DNA from: Planctomycetota bacterium | GTDB lineage: Bacteria > Planctomycetota > SZUA-567 > H5-PLA8 | Length of the DNA: 51,015 nt | Assembly: GCA_038227875.1 (NCBI GenBank) | Contig: JBBRPR010000059.1 | Location: 1 to 51,015, forward strand | Direction of reading: 5' to 3' | Shown here: piece by piece, positions 30,001 to 36,000 of the stretch | How the letters are laid out: each line of letters starts with the position of its first letter | Numbering within the stretch: the stretch's first letter is position 1 | Program-made: the position numbers

Positions 30001-33000
30001 GGCCATGGCCGGCGCGGTTGAAGCAGCGCTGGCGGGATTGGGTATGGGCGGAGCGCTGGGCGGACTGGCTGGCGCGATTATTGGGCTGGGCGTGCCGGAG
30101 TATGTCGTCCGCCGCTACGAAGGCCGCACCTTGAAGGGCGGCATTTTGCTTTCGGTTCACTGCGACGATTCCGGGTGGACGGACAAAGCCAAGAAAGTGC
30201 TCGAACGCACCGGCGCGGAGGACGTTGCATCAACGCCGGAGGCGCCGGCGGAATGAAGAGGATGTCGACCGTCGAAGTTGGAAAGTGACGTTGAAACTAC
30301 AATGGACGAAACCAGGAGGAGAATCATGAATAACGGTAAGAATGGCAAAAATGGTGAAGAGAACAGCGCGCGCGAATCGATCACGCGGCAGGAATTGGCA
30401 AAGCTGCTCAATGAAGATTTGGCGCGCGAGTACCAGGCGGTGATCGCGTACGTTCAGTACAGCCAGGTGTTGAAAGGCCCGCAGTACGTGGCGATCGCCA
30501 AGGAACTCGAAGCGCACGCGTCAGAGGAACTGGAACACGCGCTGAAGATCTGCAAGCAGATCGACTATCTCGGTGAAACTCCGACGGTCACGCCGAAGCT
30601 GGTGAAGACGTCTGAAAAGCCTGAGGACATGTTGCGCTTCGATCTTGATAACGAGAACGAAACGGTGCGCAACTACCGCGAACGCGTGCGGCAGGCGGAA
30701 GCGCTGGGCGAGTACGCGATGGCCGAAGTGATTCGCGGCATCCTGGTACAGGAGCAGGATCACCAGATCGATCTGGCCACCGCGCTGGGTATCGACGTCC
30801 CGAAGGAAGGGCTGGCGAATGCCTCCAGTGACGTAGCACCCGTCCGCGAAGTTGCGGCGCGCCACTAAGTACACCCGGCACTTTCGCTGGTGCCGTGCTC
30901 GTATAGGATGCTTCACTTGCGTGGAAACGCGCCATATATATGTATGGGCGTTTCCACGCGGATTTTTCAAGTCGTATCGCGGACGGGGGAGATTCAGGGG
31001 CGGATGACGGAATACAAACTGCTGGTTGATGGCAAGGAATTGAAAGTCAGCACGCACCGGGATGAAGACCGCAACACCTTTGAAGTGACTTTCGCGCCAG
31101 GCGTTCCCTGCACTCTGCATTGGGGATTGCGGGGCGTCGGAAGGGAATGGAAGAGCCCGCCGGAGAACATCTGGCCGGCGCAGACGACCTCCGCCGATGC
31201 GCAGTCGGCGGATTCTTTATTCCCGGCCAGCCCGGCCGAATCCAAAGTGAGTTTCAGTGTTCCCAACACGGCCAACGCCAAAGGCGTGATGTTCGTGCTG
31301 CATTTTCCGCAGACCAAGCGCTGGGTGAAAAACGGCAACGAGGATTATTACATTCCGTTTGAAGGCAATCCGCAAGCGACGCCGATCGACGGAATGATTG
31401 ACACGATTTGCGGCGCGGAAGTCGGCAAGGGCTCGTGGACGCTGATGCACCGCTTCCACCTGGCTCACGATCTGATCAACGAAGCTAACAACAATCCCGA
31501 CGCGCTGGCGCTGATTTTCGTCTGGCTGCGCTTCAGCGCGATCCGGCAACTGGATTGGCAGCGCAATTACAATACGAAACCGCGCGAACTCTCGGCGGCT
31601 CAGGATCGCCTGACCAAACGCATCGCGGCGCTCTACCGACACAGCCCGGCGGCGCGGACGTGGGCGCGCGGGATGCTCACCACGCTGGGCCGCGGCGGTG
31701 AAGGGCAGCAGGTGCGCGATGAAATTCTGCAGATCATGCACCGTCACCACATCAAGGAAACACACGGCCACTTTATGGAAGAGTGGCATCAGAAGCTGCA
31801 CAACAACACCACACCCGACGATGTGATCATCTGCGAAGCGTTGCTGGCGTTTTTGGACAGCAACGGCGACTTGAAGCGTTTCTACGATCATCTGGAAGGC
31901 AACGGCGTTACGCGCGACCGGCTGCGCAGCTTCGAGCGCGCGATCAAGACCGATCCCAATTTCAATCATGGCGACAAAGAACGGTTGATGCCGGAGTTCC
32001 GCAACTTCCTGCGTATTTTGAAGTCGGTGCACTCGGGGACGGATTTCGATTCCGCCGTCGACGCCGCGCAGAGGTATTTCAGTGGCGAACTGCGGGGCAA
32101 GATTCAGGAACTCGGTGGAATGCGCCACGGCCATGCGCCGCTGGCGGACGTCGCCAAAACGGCGACGGCCGCGCGCGAAATTCTGGCGCGCGACGCCTGG
32201 AATTCCAAAGACGACGGTGCGATGCGCGACCTGCTGTATCTCGACCTTGCGCTGGAAGGATTTTTGCGCCTGGCTTTCGAACGGCAGGACTGGTTGAAGG
32301 TCAATCGCGATACGCTCAGCTTTCTGCTCCAACTGGTTGTGCGGAATCTGCAGGTGACCAATCCTTCCGATGAACTGGGCATGATCCAGCGGCACTTCGA
32401 CGCGCTGGTCAGCAACCCAAACAAGGACGCCAATTGGGCTCTCCAAGCCAAGAGTGTTACCGACCGCCTGGGGCGTTGTGTGCAGGAAATTTCGAGCAGC
32501 TTCTACGCGACGTTGCAGCCGAAGGCCGAGCAACTGGGCCGCGCGTGCAAAGTTCAGGACTGGGTGCTGCCGCTTTTCAGCGAAGAGGTGATTCGCGGCA
32601 GCCTGCTGTTCGTGCTCTCGCTGATGCTGCGGCGGCTCGACGCGGAACTCCGTGCGGCCGCGGGACTCGGAGGCTGGCAGGTAGTCAGTCCGTCGAACGT
32701 TAAAGGCCGCGTGCGCGTGGTCGACAGCCTGATGTCAGTTCAAGGGCAGCGCTTTGGCGAATCGACCGTGATCGTCTCCGATCACGTCAGCGGCAACGAG
32801 GACATTCCCGAAGGCGTCGCCGCTGTGATCACGACGGCGACGGTCGATCTCGTGTCGCACGCCGCCGTGCGCGCGCGCAATGGCCGCGTACTTTTTGCCA
32901 CCTGTTTTGATGCAAAACCCTACGAAACACTGAAGGCGTTGAACGGCAAGAACGCGGCGCTGGAAGTGAGCCCCGGCGGCGATGTGCTTGTCCAGGAGAG

Positions 33001-36000
33001 CAGCGCGGGCAGCGCGATCTTACAGGAACACGCGAAGCTTGGAGGATCGATTCGCCAGCGTGCGTTCTCGACGTGGGCGGTAAGCGCGGGAGAGTTCACG
33101 CCGGAGATTGTGGGCGGAAAGTCGAACAACCTGAACGGGCTGCGCGGCAAGCTACCGGACTGGATTGCGTTTCCGAAATCGATGGCGCTGCCATTCGGTG
33201 TCTTCGAGAAGCTGCTGTCGAGCGGTGAGAACAGCGACGTACGCGAAAAATACGCCGCGCTGGTGGGGCGCATTGAAGAAAATGTGCCGGCGACGCTGCA
33301 GAAAATTCGCGCACTGATTCTGGAGCTCAAGCCGGCGGCCGATTTCGATAGCGCGCTGGTGCGGACATGGGAGCGCACCGGGCTTCCGCCCTTCGAACGC
33401 GAAGCGAACTGGAAAGCGATCACACGCGTCTGGGCGTCGAAGTGGAACGACCGCGCGTATCTCTCGCGCCGCGCGCTGGGGTTGAGTCACACCGATCTGA
33501 CGATGGCAGTGCTGATTCAGGAAGTCGTGGAAGCCGATTACGCGTTCGTGATCCACACGGCCAATCCGATCAACGGCAATCGCGGCGAAATTTTCGGCGA
33601 GGTCGTACTGGGTCTGGGCGAAACGCTGGTCGGCAACGATCCGGGTCGCGCCTTCGGGTTCGTCTTTCGCAAAAATGACGGAGCGGTTAAACTGATTTCT
33701 TATCCAGGCAAAAGTTCAGGCTTGTATGGTAAGGGGCTGATTTTCCGATCCGATTCCAACGGCGAGGACCTGGAAGGATTCGCGGGCGCCGGCTTGTACG
33801 ACAGCGTGCTGGCGCACGAACCCGAACGCCGGCGCCTGGATTACAGCCGCGAGCCGCTGGTGACCAACGCGAAGTTCCGCGCCGACCTCGTCGCGAAAAT
33901 CGCGCATGTCGGATTGGAAGTGGAGAAAGCATTCAGCGCCCCGCAGGACATTGAAGGCGCGATCAGCCGCGGGCAGAGTTTTGTCGTGCAAACGCGGCCG
34001 CAGGTCGGGCTATAGCGCTTAGGAGAAACGCAAGAACCATGAGCAACCGCATTCGCATCGGCAACCAGACCGCCAGTTCCGCGCATTACGCGCGAGCGCC
34101 GTTTGATTTTGCGCTGCACTATCGCTTCGATGCGTTCGAGTGGTTTTCGGACAAGAAGGGCTCGCAGGGATGGGGCGAGTCGGATTTTGATGCGGGGACG
34201 CGCGAAGAAATTCGCCAGATCGGACTGCGCCACGACATTCACTATTCCGTCCACGCACCCTGGCAGGCCAATCCGCTCGATAGCGACGGCATCAACTTGC
34301 TCTACAACAGCGTCCATTTCGCGCACGAAATTGGCGCGAAGCTGGTGAATCTCCACCTTTATATGGATCGTGGACCGCATGAATACGTCAAAGCCCTGCT
34401 GCCGGTGATTCATTTTGCGACGAGTAAAAATGTACGCATCAGCATCGAAAATACGCCGCTGACGCCGCCCGATGAATTCAACCAGACGTTCGCCGCCTTC
34501 AAAAATACGAATGAAGTCAGCGCCAATAACGTCGGTATGTGCCTGGACATCGGCCACGCCAATCTTTGCGGCGCGACGCGCTTTGATTACATCAAGTACA
34601 TTGACCAACTCTCCGCCGACGTGCCGATCATTCATCTGCATGTTCACGAAAACTACGGCGACCACGATTCGCATCTGACGCTGTTCTCGGGGCCATCAGG
34701 ACAGAACGACGCGGGCATCCGCGCGTTTATCGAACGGTTGCGCGATCGCAAATACGATGGCGCGATGATCCTGGAACAGTGGCCGCACGACACCACGCAA
34801 CTGCTGATCGCGCGGGCGCGGTTGCGGATGCTGCTGGACGTGCATGGGTAGCCCTCCCCTCAACTTCTCCGACATCGCCGGCGACGATCTCGCGTCGCTT
34901 GCGGAAATTCACACGCATGCACCCGGGCCGCAGGGGAAGCTGCCGCTCACGTCGGAAATGCTGCTGAAATGGTCGAGCGGCGATATTTTCGGACTGAGCC
35001 AGAACGCCGGCATGGGCTGGACGCCCGAGCAGCTCAATTGGAAAAACTATCTGATCCTAAGCACCTCCGGCGGCATCCGCGCGGATGACGGTACGCCCAT
35101 TGCGCTGGGTTATCACACCGGCCATTGGGAAGTTGGGCTGCTGATGCAGGCGGCGGCGAGAGAATTCAAAGCGCGCGGCTCGATTCCGTTCGCGGCGTAC
35201 TGCACCGATCCGTGCGACGGGCGGACACAAGGCACGCCAGGAATGATGGACAGCCTCGCCTTTCGCAACGATGCGGCGATTGTGCTGCGGCGGCTGATCC
35301 GTTCACTGCCGCGGCGCGTCGGCGTGCTGGGCGTGGCGACGTGCGACAAGGGACTGCCTGCGATGATGATGGCGCTGGCCGGCACGCCCGATCTGCCGTG
35401 CGTGCTGGTGCCTGGCGGCGTGACGCTGCCGCCCACGGTCGGCGAAGACGCGGGTAAAGTGCAGACCATCGGCGCGCGCTACGCTCACGGCACGATCTCG
35501 CTCGAGGAAGCCGCGGAGATGGCCTGCCATGCCTGCGCCTCTCCCGGCGGCGGCTGCCAGTTTCTCGGCACGGCCGCGACGGCACAGGTGGTCGGCGAAG
35601 CACTCGGCCTTTCGCTGACGCATAGCGCGTTGGCGCCGTCGGGTCAGCCGATCTGGCTGGACATGGCAGTGCGTTCCGCGCGCGCGTTGATTCATCTTGC
35701 CGACCGCGGCATTCGCACGCGCGACATTCTCACGCCGGAAGCCGTGCGCAACGCGATGACCGTGCACGCGGCGTTTGGCGGATCGACGAATCTGCTGCTC
35801 CACATTCCGGCCATCTCGCACGCAGCCGGGCTGCCGCGGCCGATGGTGGAGGACTGGATCGCAATCAATCGAAGCGTCCCGCGCCTGGTTGATGCGCTGC
35901 CGAATGGGCCGGTGGGGCATCCCACCGTGCAGGTATTTCTGGCCGGCGGCGTGCCGGAAGTGATGCTGCATCTTCGGCGCATGAAACTGCTGAACGAAGA

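Follow-up and report, generated by a model that had tools for sequence, protein, structure and literature searches.

The closest described relatives of the gene considered here are the plant and algal alpha-glucan, water dikinases GWD1 and GWD2 (EC 2.7.9.4; potato R1, StGWD1), of which the phosphoglucan, water dikinases (PWD/GWD3, EC 2.7.9.5) are distant paralogues. In eukaryotes, the removal of glucan-bound phosphate is the job of SEX4, LSF2 and laforin, which combine a dual-specificity phosphatase fold with CBM20 or CBM48. A 2026 review describes prokaryotes as being without “known glucan phosphorylation machinery” (PMC13666283). The first-pass annotation of this DNA had pointed to that gap, which the review bears out, and had held that a recent review does not mention the bacterial family; bacterial GWDs had, however, already been shown by Cenci et al. 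2018 (PMC6260743, Fig. 9 legend), with lateral gene transfer suggested.

The locus lies within the window, that is, the whole 51,015-nucleotide stretch of planctomycete DNA analysed, and comprises the following features.

30917..30968, + strand: hairpin and U-run between a ferritin-like gene and the GWD gene, a likely terminator (sequence read, RNA fold)
31004..34015, + strand: GWD-family alpha-glucan, water dikinase gene (product P0001; 1003 aa, stop-free frame, three Pfam GWD domains)
31022..31360, + strand: single CBM45-type domain, aa 7–119 (Pfam Ig_N_CWD1, 56.4 bits)
31394..32662, + strand: central, putatively glucan-accepting helical domain, aa 131–553 (match to 9ha9/9qvi)
32672..33004, + strand: phosphohistidine domain, aa 557–667 (Pfam GWD1_pHisD, 119.4 bits; genome search match at 32672-33004)
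32858-32860, + strand: catalytic His619 codon (motif DLVSH619AAVRARN)
33071..34012, + strand: ATP-binding (PPDK_N-type) domain, about aa 690–1003 (Pfam PPDK_N, 95.9 bits)
34039..34851, + strand: Endo IV/CbiR-like TIM barrel, 270 aa, candidate phosphoglucan phosphoesterase (Pfam AP_endonuc_2, 83.7 bits)
34844..36811, + strand: YjhG/YagF-family D-xylonate dehydratase (NCBIfam TIGR03432, 1142.5 bits; cut-off 808)

P0001 follows the plant and algal GWD1/GWD2 order of CBM45, central helical, phosphohistidine and ATP domains, with end-to-end identities of 38–43%: 41.2% to Gossypium GWD1 (982 aligned columns), 38.2% to Nymphaea GWD2 (981 columns), and 42.9%, 43.4% and 39.7% to the homologues of Picocystis, Gloeochaete and Cyanidium, respectively. 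It is equally similar to algal GWDs (43%) and to one Nitrospirota homologue (43.5%). All three Pfam domains exceed their cut-off of 27 bits, the best PPDK_N stretch being aa 799–877. The D-x-x-S-H-x-x-VRARN motif of the catalytic histidine is common to P0001 and GWD1/GWD2, with H619 unchanged in all 17 rows of one alignment and all 12 of another, and the ATP domain shares VGGK706S, WASKWNDRAY, GLGETLVGN, FRSDSNGEDL..AGAGLYDS and PQDIEG..VVQTRPQ with the plant and algal enzymes. The likeness extends to the central domain, where residues 131–553 match the potato GWD1 crystal chain 9ha9_A with an E-value of 3.9e-80 and cover chain residues 25–466 of 9ha9/9qvi. Here the E-E-x-x-R helix (FSE527E528VIR531), R550 and W558 are retained; by a constant offset from H992, E527, E528, R531, R550 and W558 correspond to E900, E901, R904, R923 and W931 of StGWD1, residues named in PMC13553574. 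As judged from its sequence, then, P0001 is a full GWD-family protein, and the earlier identification of a GWD-type gene carrying the three domains and the phosphohistidine motif holds. All 13 NCBIfam matches of the PEP-synthase type lie far below their cut-offs, and a generic PEP-utilising enzyme was rejected.

Several features set P0001 apart from the plant enzymes. Plant GWDs have two CBM45 domains, whereas P0001 has one and lacks the long linker (DUF7067) and the transit peptide. The earlier statement that the CBM45 region is missing therefore needs qualification: one copy is present rather than two, and the retained Ig_N_CWD1 domain, compared using StGWD1 CBM45 coordinates from PMC13553574, is assigned by alignment as the equivalent of plant CBM45_2. 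Both CBM45 copies of Gossypium and Nymphaea, as well as bacterial copies, can be aligned with it, and it conserves the LHWG motif (W40), W49 and W107. Also unlike the plant gene, that of P0001 sits in an operon-like unit with the TIM-barrel gene. Plant GWDs contain a C-F-A-T-C pair of cysteines. Leu630 of P0001 stands in place of the first of these, which makes plant-type redox control unlikely; a disulfide near this motif is mentioned in PMC12892837.

The GWD start codon sits 44 nt past the strong upstream hairpin (−31.4 kcal/mol, z −7.2, equalled by none of 200 shuffles), so that, if this is the terminator it resembles, GWD would begin its own transcription unit; a consensus terminator scan did not report the hairpin because its 12-nt loop exceeds the limit of the scan. 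Downstream, the TIM-barrel gene starts 24 nt past the GWD stop and overlaps the dehydratase gene by 8 nt, and these latter two are probably co-transcribed. The dehydratase is absent from the recurrent neighbour clusters of 80 related loci and lies outside the conserved system. GC content drops to about 50% over the window's final 5 kb.

The large bacterial family reported earlier was found again, across many phyla. P0001 has 1466 relatives with E<=0.001 among 8000 proteins scored; the best 120 of these are 50–100% identical, 998–1210 aa long and possess all three Pfam families. A scan of all proteins in a 50%-identity library returned 557 representatives at E<=1e-30, and of 330 pattern matches in a collection of 185,579 species, 315 species genomes encode a relative. 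Nearly all bacterial carriers are MAGs. Within a sample of the window's phylum, Planctomycetota, 10 of 401 genomes contain GWD_pHisD above the Pfam cut-off, and none of the other 8 sampled genomes from the window's own family has GWD; the gene is therefore dispensable in the lineage, which the system probably reached by horizontal transfer.

Among seven scanned proteins placed with bacteria by label or tree position, five have two CBM45 copies, as in plants. Such proteins occur in Gemmataceae-labelled MAGs, Nitrospirota, Verrucomicrobiota, Desulfobacterota and Chromatiales and form one family with P0001 (43–57% identity; 87% for P0002), and a TIM barrel lies downstream of GWD both in the window and in these homologues. 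They are mostly 1150–1280 aa, with the second CBM45 that P0001 lacks, and are often followed by a TIM-barrel/PWD-like fusion, a second divergent TIM barrel, GH13 and DUF4912, none of which accompanies GWD in the window. The window genome gave a single pHisD match in the genome search and is without a PWD-like dikinase. Hence the window holds a reduced system with one CBM45 and no PWD-like second dikinase, and the fuller version is found in Nitrospirota, Desulfobacterota, Verrucomicrobiota, Gammaproteobacteria and another planctomycete family.

The second dikinase retains the catalytic histidine and is 25% identical to P0001 over residues 241–1003. Its gene adjoins GWD in 18 of 81 loci (80 relatives plus the window); the two lie about 3.5 kb apart in genomes G135, G171, G188 and G205, and in other phyla the TIM/PWD-like fusion adjoins GWD. 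JGI names this protein “phosphoglucan, water dikinase”, and its nearest named Atlas cluster is a streptophyte PPDK_N+pHisD(+CBM20) group (score 0.97), which we take as a lead only. P0001 itself groups with GWD, apart from the bacterial PWD-like clade, across a branch of 1.1–1.3.

The TIM barrel, listed earlier as an AP_endonuc_2 neighbour, is more than a chance neighbour: the free protein shares 52% identity with the N-terminal domain of the TIM/PWD-like dikinase that adjoins GWD in other phyla. What is new is its recurrence as a conserved downstream partner. Of the 68 loci with at least 1 kb downstream of GWD, 37 have a TIM barrel as the first downstream gene, free in 20 and fused to a PWD-like dikinase in 17; at locus L029 the fusion comes after a small ORF. 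Among the 401 planctomycete genomes, 14 encode the TIM subfamily (E<=1e-57), including all 10 with GWD_pHisD. By sequence kinship and gene order, we assign the TIM barrel to the GWD system.

The fold is a TIM barrel (AF2 pLDDT 91.2), and the closest known group is the Endo IV/CbiR/MJ1311 branch of the AP_endonuc_2 (xylose-isomerase-like) superfamily. H72, H106, E137, D170, H173, H201, D210, H212 and E246 are retained across 35 homologues, and this nine-position pattern (H..H..E..DxxH..H..DxH..E) aligns with the Endo IV motifs of M. tuberculosis and E. coli. Its nearest curated families, CbiR and Endo IV, are phosphoesterases. Unlike their curated members, the partner falls below every curated cut-off, the best NCBIfam match being CbiR phosphodiesterase at 48.3 bits (cut-off 105); unlike Endo IV, it lies outside any DNA-repair context in the window, and its ties, through fusions and gene order, are to glucan dikinases. 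The closest structure is MJ1311, titled “D-tagatose 3-epimerase-like” in the PDB, although Table 1 of PMC2770678 gives it as the predicted homologue of Endo IV. We propose tentatively, at appreciably less than even odds, that the partner is a metal-dependent phosphoglucan phosphatase removing glucan-bound phosphate. It would then do the work of SEX4, LSF2 and laforin beside a dikinase, a likeness of proposed role only; their fold is unrelated. Several observations count against this: the fold search does not separate Endo IV-type proteins from sugar 3-epimerases (both E 1e-14 to 1e-9), the CbiR match is under its cut-off, and in 4 of the 14 planctomycete genomes encoding the TIM subfamily no GWD is seen. 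Genome G330, which is 99% complete, moreover has the gene after mutL with no glucan gene near, a context that also fits a DNA-repair Endo IV, and a phosphatase fused to a dikinase seems futile unless both are regulated.

It is informative to consider the surroundings of GWD in relatives. The earlier remark that its neighbours are not glycogen genes is correct for the window, where no glucan gene lies within 7 kb and the third gene is the xylonate dehydratase, but not for the family: 38 of the 81 loci have glgA, glgB, GH13, GH57 or malQ within that radius. The neighbour families are GH13 hDGE-like (17), DUF4912 (8), GlgB (7), GlgA (7), GH13 with Alpha-amyl_C2 (7), GH57 branching enzyme (6), other GH57 (5) and MalQ (4). 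The window's own genome, 88% complete, encodes two GlgC, one GlgA, three GH57 branching enzymes, GlgX (701.6 bits) and GlgP (1076.5 bits), and tblastn adds a MalQ-like match, though a weak one (23% identity, E 3e-17); neither CBM20 nor beta-amylase was found in it, and its DSPc proteins are small (171–221 aa frames).

From the sequence, its conserved domains and motifs, the arrangement of the genes and their co-occurrence we infer, with a probability of about 0.7, that P0001 is a working GWD-family member in the cytoplasm, with the alpha-glucan of the cell itself, glycogen-like or starch-like, as its substrate. Against this reading weigh the predominance of MAGs among the carriers, the lack of nearby glucan genes in the window, the absence of a PWD-like dikinase, CBM20 and beta-amylase from its genome, and the absence of GWD from the 8 other sampled members of its family. 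On the model of the homologous potato GWD1, the C-terminal domain would bind ATP, the beta-phosphate would pass to His619 on the swivelling phosphohistidine domain, and the gamma-phosphate would go to water. The histidine domain would then swing onto the groove of the central helical domain, on the E527/E528/R531 side, and the phosphate would be transferred to a glucosyl hydroxyl (C6 or C3) of a chain held by the single CBM45-type domain. Dephosphorylation by the TIM barrel, if it occurs, would leave GlgP, GlgX and MalQ to finish degradation.

This functional reading is compatible with either of two accounts of origin, which are alternatives on that question only and each of which we rate equally, a little short of an even chance. 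The bacterial GWDs may go back to a single ancient transfer from a eukaryote to a bacterium, the view put forward in 2018, or the GWD/PWD pair may have arisen in bacteria and been acquired by an early starch-accumulating eukaryote. The bacterial clade splits off no less deeply than the main eukaryotic GWD clades do. In a FastTree of 179 rows that took 10 bacterial PWD-like proteins as its root and had no plant PWD (a gap that tells against the bacterial account), clade D (96 labelled-bacterial rows) is sister to the glaucophyte/red-algal/alveolate clade (C+D support 0.96), and the free IQ-TREE (LG+G4) tree likewise nests D among eukaryotic clades (SH-aLRT 83–94). These topologies favour a eukaryotic source, as do the patchy bacterial distribution and the plant-type Alpha-amyl_C2 amylase beside GWD in 7 planctomycete loci. 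Yet D lies inside no crown eukaryotic group, and forcing all 34 eukaryotic rows into one group gives a tree 4.15 lnL units better than the free one, although the AU test does not separate the two (p 0.539 versus 0.461); the deciding branches measure only 0.001–0.07, against an outgroup branch of 1.1–1.3. In the constrained tree, one Auribacterota and one Margulisiibacteriota sequence branch below D and the eukaryotes, consistent with a bacterial source, but both are single long branches (0.9 and 1.36) that may be attracted to the outgroup, and in the free tree P0261 falls inside the green clade. The side-by-side GWD and PWD-like genes of bacteria are more easily explained by tandem origin than by two imports, the full two-CBM45 architecture exists in bacteria, and bacterial diversity (31–87% identity to P0001) brackets the distance to plants. 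The special link between plants and PVC-type bacteria suggested earlier is not supported: plants do not branch with Planctomycetota in these trees. Overall, the earlier interpretation of the gene is partly supported.

It is improbable, in our view, that P0001 is a GWD-fold dikinase whose acceptor is another polysaccharide or a small molecule and whose product is consumed by the TIM barrel and xylonate dehydratase in a sugar-acid or ketose pathway. The neighbours of GWD in the window, a TIM barrel of AP_endonuc_2 type and a YjhG/YagF dehydratase rather than glycogen genes, would fit such a pathway, ketose 3-epimerases match the TIM-barrel fold no less well than Endo IV does, and related dikinases phosphorylate rifampicin and phenolics (PMC13553574). 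However, the acceptor domain is itself conserved with potato GWD1, E-E-x-x-R helix included, the CBM45 keeps its tryptophans, relatives sit in glgA/glgB/GH13/GH57/malQ clusters, and the dehydratase is not a recurrent neighbour. That the contig is algal DNA mis-binned into a bacterial MAG is extremely improbable: although the genome is a draft in 176 contigs, with contamination estimated at 3.99%, the 51-kb window consists of tightly packed, intron-free bacterial genes (among them an RtcR sigma-54 activator, a type II secretion pseudopilin, PFOR and a tyrosine recombinase), GC content keeps to an even 54–64% across 24000-46000, which holds the GWD locus, the gene 24 nt after GWD has a stop overlapping the next gene, and the closest relatives of GWD lie on bacterial contigs of up to 4.8 Mb.

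An intact GWD relative, together with a TIM barrel that is elsewhere fused to a second dikinase, suggests that some bacteria probably phosphorylate their own storage glucan. If the bacterial enzymes derive from a eukaryotic donor, glucan phosphorylation would stay a eukaryotic invention, borrowed by bacteria and spread among them.

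On its sequence, P0001, the protein encoded by the GWD (alpha-glucan, water dikinase) gene of the window, is a genuine GWD-family member from a bacterium; it is intact and represents a reduced form of two genes. The gene and its surroundings are set out below, with the Pfam domains of P0001 in amino acid positions.

Features of the window and domains of P0001
23784-24242, minus strand: Barstar-like inhibitor, overlapping the end of the 133-aa ORF
24239-24640, minus strand: 133-aa ORF, no Pfam match
25904-27589, minus strand: Ro60/TROVE-vWA protein, divergent from the RtcR gene
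27663-29279, plus strand: RtcR sigma-54 activator, divergent pair with the Ro60/TROVE-vWA gene
30278-30868: ferritin-like gene, 5' of the GWD gene
30917-30968: near-perfect hairpin of 19 pairs, then UUUUU (-31.4 kcal/mol, z -7.2), between the ferritin-like and GWD genes
31004-34015, plus strand: GWD ORF, uninterrupted frame, 1003 aa
P0001 aa 7-119: Ig_N_CWD1 (CBM45-type), 56.4 bits, above cut-off
P0001 aa 557-667: GWD1_pHisD (phosphohistidine domain), 119.4 bits, above cut-off
P0001 C-terminal: PPDK_N (ATP domain), 95.9 bits, above cut-off
34039-34851, plus strand: AP_endonuc_2 TIM barrel, 270 aa, starting 24 bases past the GWD stop
34844-36811: YjhG/YagF-type xylonate dehydratase (1142.5 bits), overlapping the end of the TIM-barrel gene by 8 nt

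The central domain of P0001 (aa 131-553) matches the potato GWD1 central-domain structures 9ha9 and 9qvi (E 3.9e-80), and the GWD domain order is present (CBM45, central helical, phosphohistidine, C-terminal ATP) with one CBM45 domain, not two. The equivalent of potato H992 is H619, which lies within DLVSHAAVRARN with the SH-x-x-VRARN helix kept; it is invariant in all 17 rows of A1, the alignment that seeded the locus search, and in all 12 rows of a second alignment, which spans cotton, water-lily, green, red, glaucophyte, chromerid and ciliate GWDs and in which the ATP-domain motifs of P0001 are nearly unchanged. (A1 includes rows from a ciliate clade, P0161, P0162, P0168, P0186, P0189 and P0206, and from a haptophyte-containing clade, P0198, which bears on the search patterns only.) In a 2026 JBC paper (PMC13553574), potato GWD1 (StGWD1) is divided into five domains, CBM45_1 (aa 11-129), CBM45_2 (343-464), central, His (H992) and ATP, and E900, E901, R904, R923 and W931 are proposed as the central-domain residues that face the catalytic His. 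Residues E527, E528, R531, R550 and W558 of P0001, the first three in the helix F-S-E527-E528-V-I-R531, align with FTEEIIR...R...W of cotton, the potato numbering being reached through a constant offset of 373 from H992 and not through alignment of the full-length potato sequence.

The first-pass annotation had described the CBM45 region as absent, which is right for the distal copy and the linker; one CBM45 domain is retained, with W40 (LHW40G), W49 and W107, which are conserved in 12 of 12 aligned CBM45 copies, and it aligns with both plant copies. Among 12 proteins scanned, Ig_N_CWD1 matches plant GWDs twice, corresponding to their two CBM45s, and also occurs twice in P0080, P0122, P0142, P0121 and P0261, each either bacterial itself or placed within the bacterial clade; the forms of about 1000 aa (P0133, P0145, P0186) have a single match. 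Because the nearest tree neighbours of P0001, apart from P0002, carry two copies, its one-copy state looks like a secondary loss.

Comparison with neighbouring families places the protein further. Whereas plastidial GWD1 has a transit peptide and two CBM45 domains joined by a long linker (DUF7067), P0001 has no DUF7067 and one CBM45, and of the redox-sensitive Cys pair that lies beside the catalytic His in the plastidial enzyme, the first Cys is Leu630 in P0001. P0001 belongs to the GWD family and lies outside the plastidial GWD1 subtype. PWD (phosphoglucan, water dikinase) differs in its CBM20 N-terminus, a domain found in neither P0001 nor the window genome, and the trees place P0001 among the GWDs, a long way from the PWD-like clade of bacteria. 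A PEP synthase or pyruvate, water dikinase was rejected, the best NCBIfam model scoring 68.2 bits against a cut-off of 598 and matching the ATP domain alone. Identity to P0001 is 41.2% over 982 columns for Gossypium GWD1 (12-sequence alignment), 38.2% for Nymphaea GWD2, 42.9% for the green alga Picocystis, 43.4% for the glaucophyte Gloeochaete, 39.7% for Cyanidium and 43.5% for one Nitrospirota homologue. The large bacterial family reported earlier is borne out, with 1466 matches among 8000 scored, the best 120 being 50-100% identical and 998-1210 aa long; an exhaustive library search gave 557 cluster representatives at E<=1e-30. Read by eye, the N-terminus of P0001 has no hydrophobic signal-like stretch, and because of this and of the need for ATP the enzyme would be placed in the cytoplasm. 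As a member of the family it may phosphorylate glucosyl C6 of an alpha-glucan in an ATP-dependent manner; what bears on this is context, namely the glycogen genes beside its relatives and the glycogen pathway in its genome.

Between the ferritin-like gene and the GWD gene, the hairpin at 30917-30968 is likely an intrinsic terminator, and a new transcript probably begins at the GWD gene. A consensus scan of 30200-37800 yielded no promoters, and its 10 terminator-like sites are about as many as expected (9.7); it missed this hairpin because of its long loop. Elsewhere in the window, the Ro60/TROVE-vWA and RtcR genes (25904-29279) look like an RNA-repair (Rtc/Ro) regulatory unit, and the genes at 23784-24640 may form a barnase-type toxin/immunity pair. 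GC drops from roughly 0.60 to 0.50 across the last 5 kb (46000-51015), where a phage-integrase-family gene lies (47481-48986); an integrated element possibly has its edge here.

The earlier objection that the neighbours are not glycogen genes holds in the window, where none lies near the GWD gene, but not among the relatives, since recurrent alpha-glucan genes occur within 7 kb in 38 of 81 loci (window counted). These 81 are the window and the best 80 of the loci of relatives, which a pattern scan with one genome per species found to be encoded by 315 genomes; ORFs were called within 7 kb (721 neighbours) and clustered, and the recurrent clusters were annotated. By family, the neighbours are a GH13 hDGE-like protein (17 loci), DUF4912 (8), GlgB (7), GlgA (7), GH13 with Alpha-amyl_C2 (7, in Planctomycetota), GH57 branching enzyme (6), other GH57 (5) and MalQ (4). 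The order GlgA-GH13-GlgB-[GWD]-TIM/PWD-like-TIM2 at locus L006 and [GWD]-TIM-...-GH13-DUF4912-GH57-GlgA at L046 illustrate such clusters. The gene context of the relatives is thus evidence, missing in the window itself, for an alpha-glucan substrate. By record title, the carriers of the best 80 loci, nearly all of them MAGs, are Planctomycetota, Verrucomicrobiota, Nitrospirota, Thermodesulfobacteriota/'Deltaproteobacteria', Gammaproteobacteria (Chromatiales and one Methylophilus MAG), Acidobacteriota, Nitrospinota and Deferribacterota. A MAG labelled 'archaeon' (L048, JAIWFS010000128.1, 4390 nt) has one GWD fragment, 45% identical over residues 1-665; it is either a true archaeal carrier or a binning error, the contig being too short to separate these.

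The GH13 alpha-amylase with Alpha-amyl_C2 lies one or two genes 3' of GWD at L004, L005, L007 (4908-6209), L010, L017, L019 and L022. Alpha-amyl_C2 is a domain typical of plant alpha-amylases, and GWD may have moved together with another starch enzyme of plant-like type; tblastn gave no match to this amylase in the window genome, which is 88% complete.

The window genome (9.3 Mb) carries glycogen genes away from the window: two GlgC, GlgA, three GH57 branching enzymes, two DUF4912 proteins, GlgX and GlgP, with a weak MalQ-like match. Judged by these genes, its glycogen pathway is complete, with MalQ the weakly matched step. Two groups of these genes lie at C81:22885-26921 (glgC, DUF4912, GH57 branching enzyme) and C7:203456-210040 (GH57, glgX, GH57), and DUF4912 repeatedly adjoins GH13/GH57 genes in the GWD clusters of other phyla. 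As no classical GH13 GlgB was found in this 88%-complete genome, glucan branching appears to depend on the GH57 enzymes. Likewise, at the same completeness, a second phosphohistidine-domain protein, CBM20 (0 matches) and a beta-amylase were not found. Nor were glucan phosphatases of the SEX4/LSF2/laforin type (DSP domain with CBM20 or CBM48) found in this 88%-complete genome, its DSPc matches lying in frames of 171-221 aa, with one further weak match in an 801-aa frame. A weak PPDK_N-like match (C153:446-3972; 27% across 145 aa with the fusion dikinase described below) lies about 1 kb from the glycogen phosphorylase gene on a short contig.

It is informative to consider the gene that follows GWD in the window. 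The TIM barrel scores 83.7 bits with PF01261 (AP_endonuc_2; cut-off 31.1), and its AF2 model (pLDDT 91.2) has alternating strands and helices. The nearest curated family, the CbiR cobamide-remodelling phosphodiesterase (NF041277), was rejected at 48.3 bits against a cut-off of 105; deoxyribonuclease IV is a weak curated-family match. A profile of 35 homologues matches MJ1311 (E 5e-12), M. tuberculosis Endo IV (5zhz, 0.0017), ASFV AP endonuclease (0.055) and E. coli Endo IV (1qtw, 0.14), and the HAP, xH, ENT, DxxH, H, DxH and E motifs line up with Endo IV-type enzymes. In these 35, H72, H212 and E246 are invariant, and conservation reaches at least 90% at H106, E137, D170, H173, H199/H201/H203, D208/D210 and further positions. 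In kind and spacing these residues agree with the nine metal ligands (H, H, E, D, H, H, D, H and E) of trinuclear-metal phosphoesterases of the Endo IV type and could form such a site; sugar epimerases score equally by fold. Endo IV uses nine of these positions, sugar epimerases only four.

Our best single guess, and a tentative one, is that the TIM barrel is a phosphoesterase acting on phosphoglucan. It may instead be a phosphoglucan-recognition module for a second dikinase, a DNA-repair enzyme or a sugar-modifying enzyme, including a sugar isomerase. The top Foldseek matches all belong to the AP_endonuc_2 superfamily, with ketose 3-epimerases ranking level with Endo IV-type enzymes (E 1e-14 to 1e-9). 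GWD_pHisD scores above cut-off in 10 of 401 sampled Planctomycetota genomes, namely the window genome, 8 of 12 genomes of another family in the same class (two dikinases each) and one more, and in 0 of the 8 other genomes sampled from the family to which the window belongs. Members of the TIM subfamily (E<=1e-57) occur in 14 of the 401, these 10 and four without a pHisD match. The link between TIM barrel and GWD is strong and not exclusive, because the subfamily also occurs in genomes without a pHisD match, for example G330 (99% complete), where the gene lies 3' of mutL with no glucan gene near.

At the 68 loci with at least 1 kb 3' of GWD, a free TIM barrel comes first at 20 and a TIM/dikinase fusion at 17; the fusion follows a small ORF at one (L029), and some other gene is first at 31. 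The fusion, of about 1170 aa, combines a TIM barrel, to which that of the window is 52% identical over its full length (E 6e-93), with a second dikinase (GWD1_pHisD and PPDK_N), 25% identical to the window GWD over 241-1003 with the catalytic His retained. At L062:8001-14947, for example, the fusion accompanies a GWD with two CBM45 domains. The second-dikinase family (2307 matches among 8000 scored) has two forms, one of about 1150-1200 aa that includes the TIM barrel and one of about 860-890 aa that lacks it, and JGI labels it 'phosphoglucan, water dikinase'. Among named Atlas clusters, the closest to it is a streptophyte PPDK_N+pHisD cluster with CBM20 in 12% of its members (score 0.97), which we read as a lead.

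A protein of about 350 aa, without Pfam or NCBIfam match, occurs at 12 loci (for example L062:14967-16004, L006:14901-15926 and L035:14468-15562), directly 3' of the TIM/PWD-like fusion in nine and after small ORFs in one more. It aligns with the first TIM family (hhalign probability 90.7%, E 1.3e-6), its AF2 model (pLDDT 89.4) retrieves tagatose epimerases, ASFV AP endonuclease and Endo IV in Foldseek, and H66, H99/D100, E134, D162/H165, H227-H234, D246/H247 and E296/H298 are invariant. By profile and model, it is a second, divergent AP_endonuc_2-like TIM barrel; tblastn gave no match to it in the window genome (88% complete).

All statements on phylogeny rest on two trees: a FastTree LG+gamma tree of 179 sequences and 874 columns (P0001 residues 130-1003), for which 10 bacterial PWD-like proteins supplied the root, and a 72-row IQ-TREE LG+G4 quick tree with SH-aLRT only. 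Representatives below 850 aa and locus ORFs below 950 aa were left out of the larger tree beforehand, and L023, P0173, P0215 and P0264 were dropped for coverage below 80%. In the FastTree topology one Auribacterota and one Margulisiibacteriota sequence lie at the base, followed by clade A (21 rows, with one cluster including the haptophyte Diacronema), clade B (23 rows, green algae and plants) and, last, clade C (27 rows: glaucophyte, Cyanidium, Vitrella, ciliate) as sister to clade D (96 rows), to which all rows taken from bacterial records belong. C+D has a support of 0.96, whereas that of D itself is 0.28. The quick tree instead places D beside A+B (SH-aLRT 83-94, branches 0.04-0.07). Constraining the 34 eukaryotic rows to group together improved on the free tree by 4.15 lnL units, a difference that the AU test does not separate (p 0.539 vs 0.461); in the constrained tree the Auribacterota and Margulisiibacteriota sequences are basal and D is sister to the eukaryotes, whose stem is 0.001 long. 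Clade D therefore dates back to the split that separated the main eukaryotic GWD lineages, and it is nested in no crown group; the direction of transfer cannot be told from these trees. Nothing in them ties plants to PVC bacteria, a specific link that the first-pass annotation had entertained. Within D the phyla are mixed, with Chromatiales beside Planctomycetota, Scalindua among Nitrospirota and an acidobacterium among Verrucomicrobiota, which fits transfer of the GWD cluster among bacteria; the window gene pairs with P0002 (87% identity) in a planctomycete subclade.

P0001 belongs, by sequence and gene order, to a wider, so far undescribed bacterial dikinase/TIM-barrel system that is embedded in glycogen clusters and whose function we infer. 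In its fullest form, the reading is that at least eight bacterial phyla carry, inside glycogen clusters, a self-contained module for reversible glucan phosphorylation (GWD, a PWD-like dikinase and either one or two TIM barrels of Endo IV-like type, the latter a new non-DSP class of phosphoglucan phosphatase or a phosphoglucan-recognition domain), that they make a semi-crystalline, starch-like glucan, and that the adjacent GWD/PWD pair is ancestral to the starch-phosphorylating enzymes of eukaryotes; we would give this whole roughly one chance in five. In the open literature we found no characterisation of a bacterial GWD, of the PWD-like partner or of the TIM barrel; subscription papers and a 2020 Springer chapter on prokaryotic storage polysaccharides (Colpaert et al.) lay outside our reach, and that chapter, like the Fig. 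9 tree of PMC6260743, may already include some bacterial GWDs. Cenci et al. 2018 (PMC6260743) show bacterial GWDs in that figure and propose LGT for them. A 2026 review holds that no glucan-phosphorylating machinery is known in prokaryotes (PMC13666283); it also cites a measurement of glycogen-bound phosphate in E. coli expressing potato R1. A preprint describes the correlation between GWD and starch in eukaryotes as perfect (10.64898/2026.09.25.754361).

In the starch field, GWD is seen as a hallmark of eukaryotic starch. If the bacterial GWD system is conserved, it would offer a concrete, testable answer to the question of prokaryotic glucan phosphorylation, small GWD and PWD-like enzymes with intron-free genes that could serve structural studies and starch modification, and a candidate glucan phosphatase of a new kind. 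A bacterial GWD also bears on the origin of the starch phosphorylation pathway of algae and plants, which the trees leave unsettled, and a conserved system would point to bacteria possibly storing a starch-like glucan.
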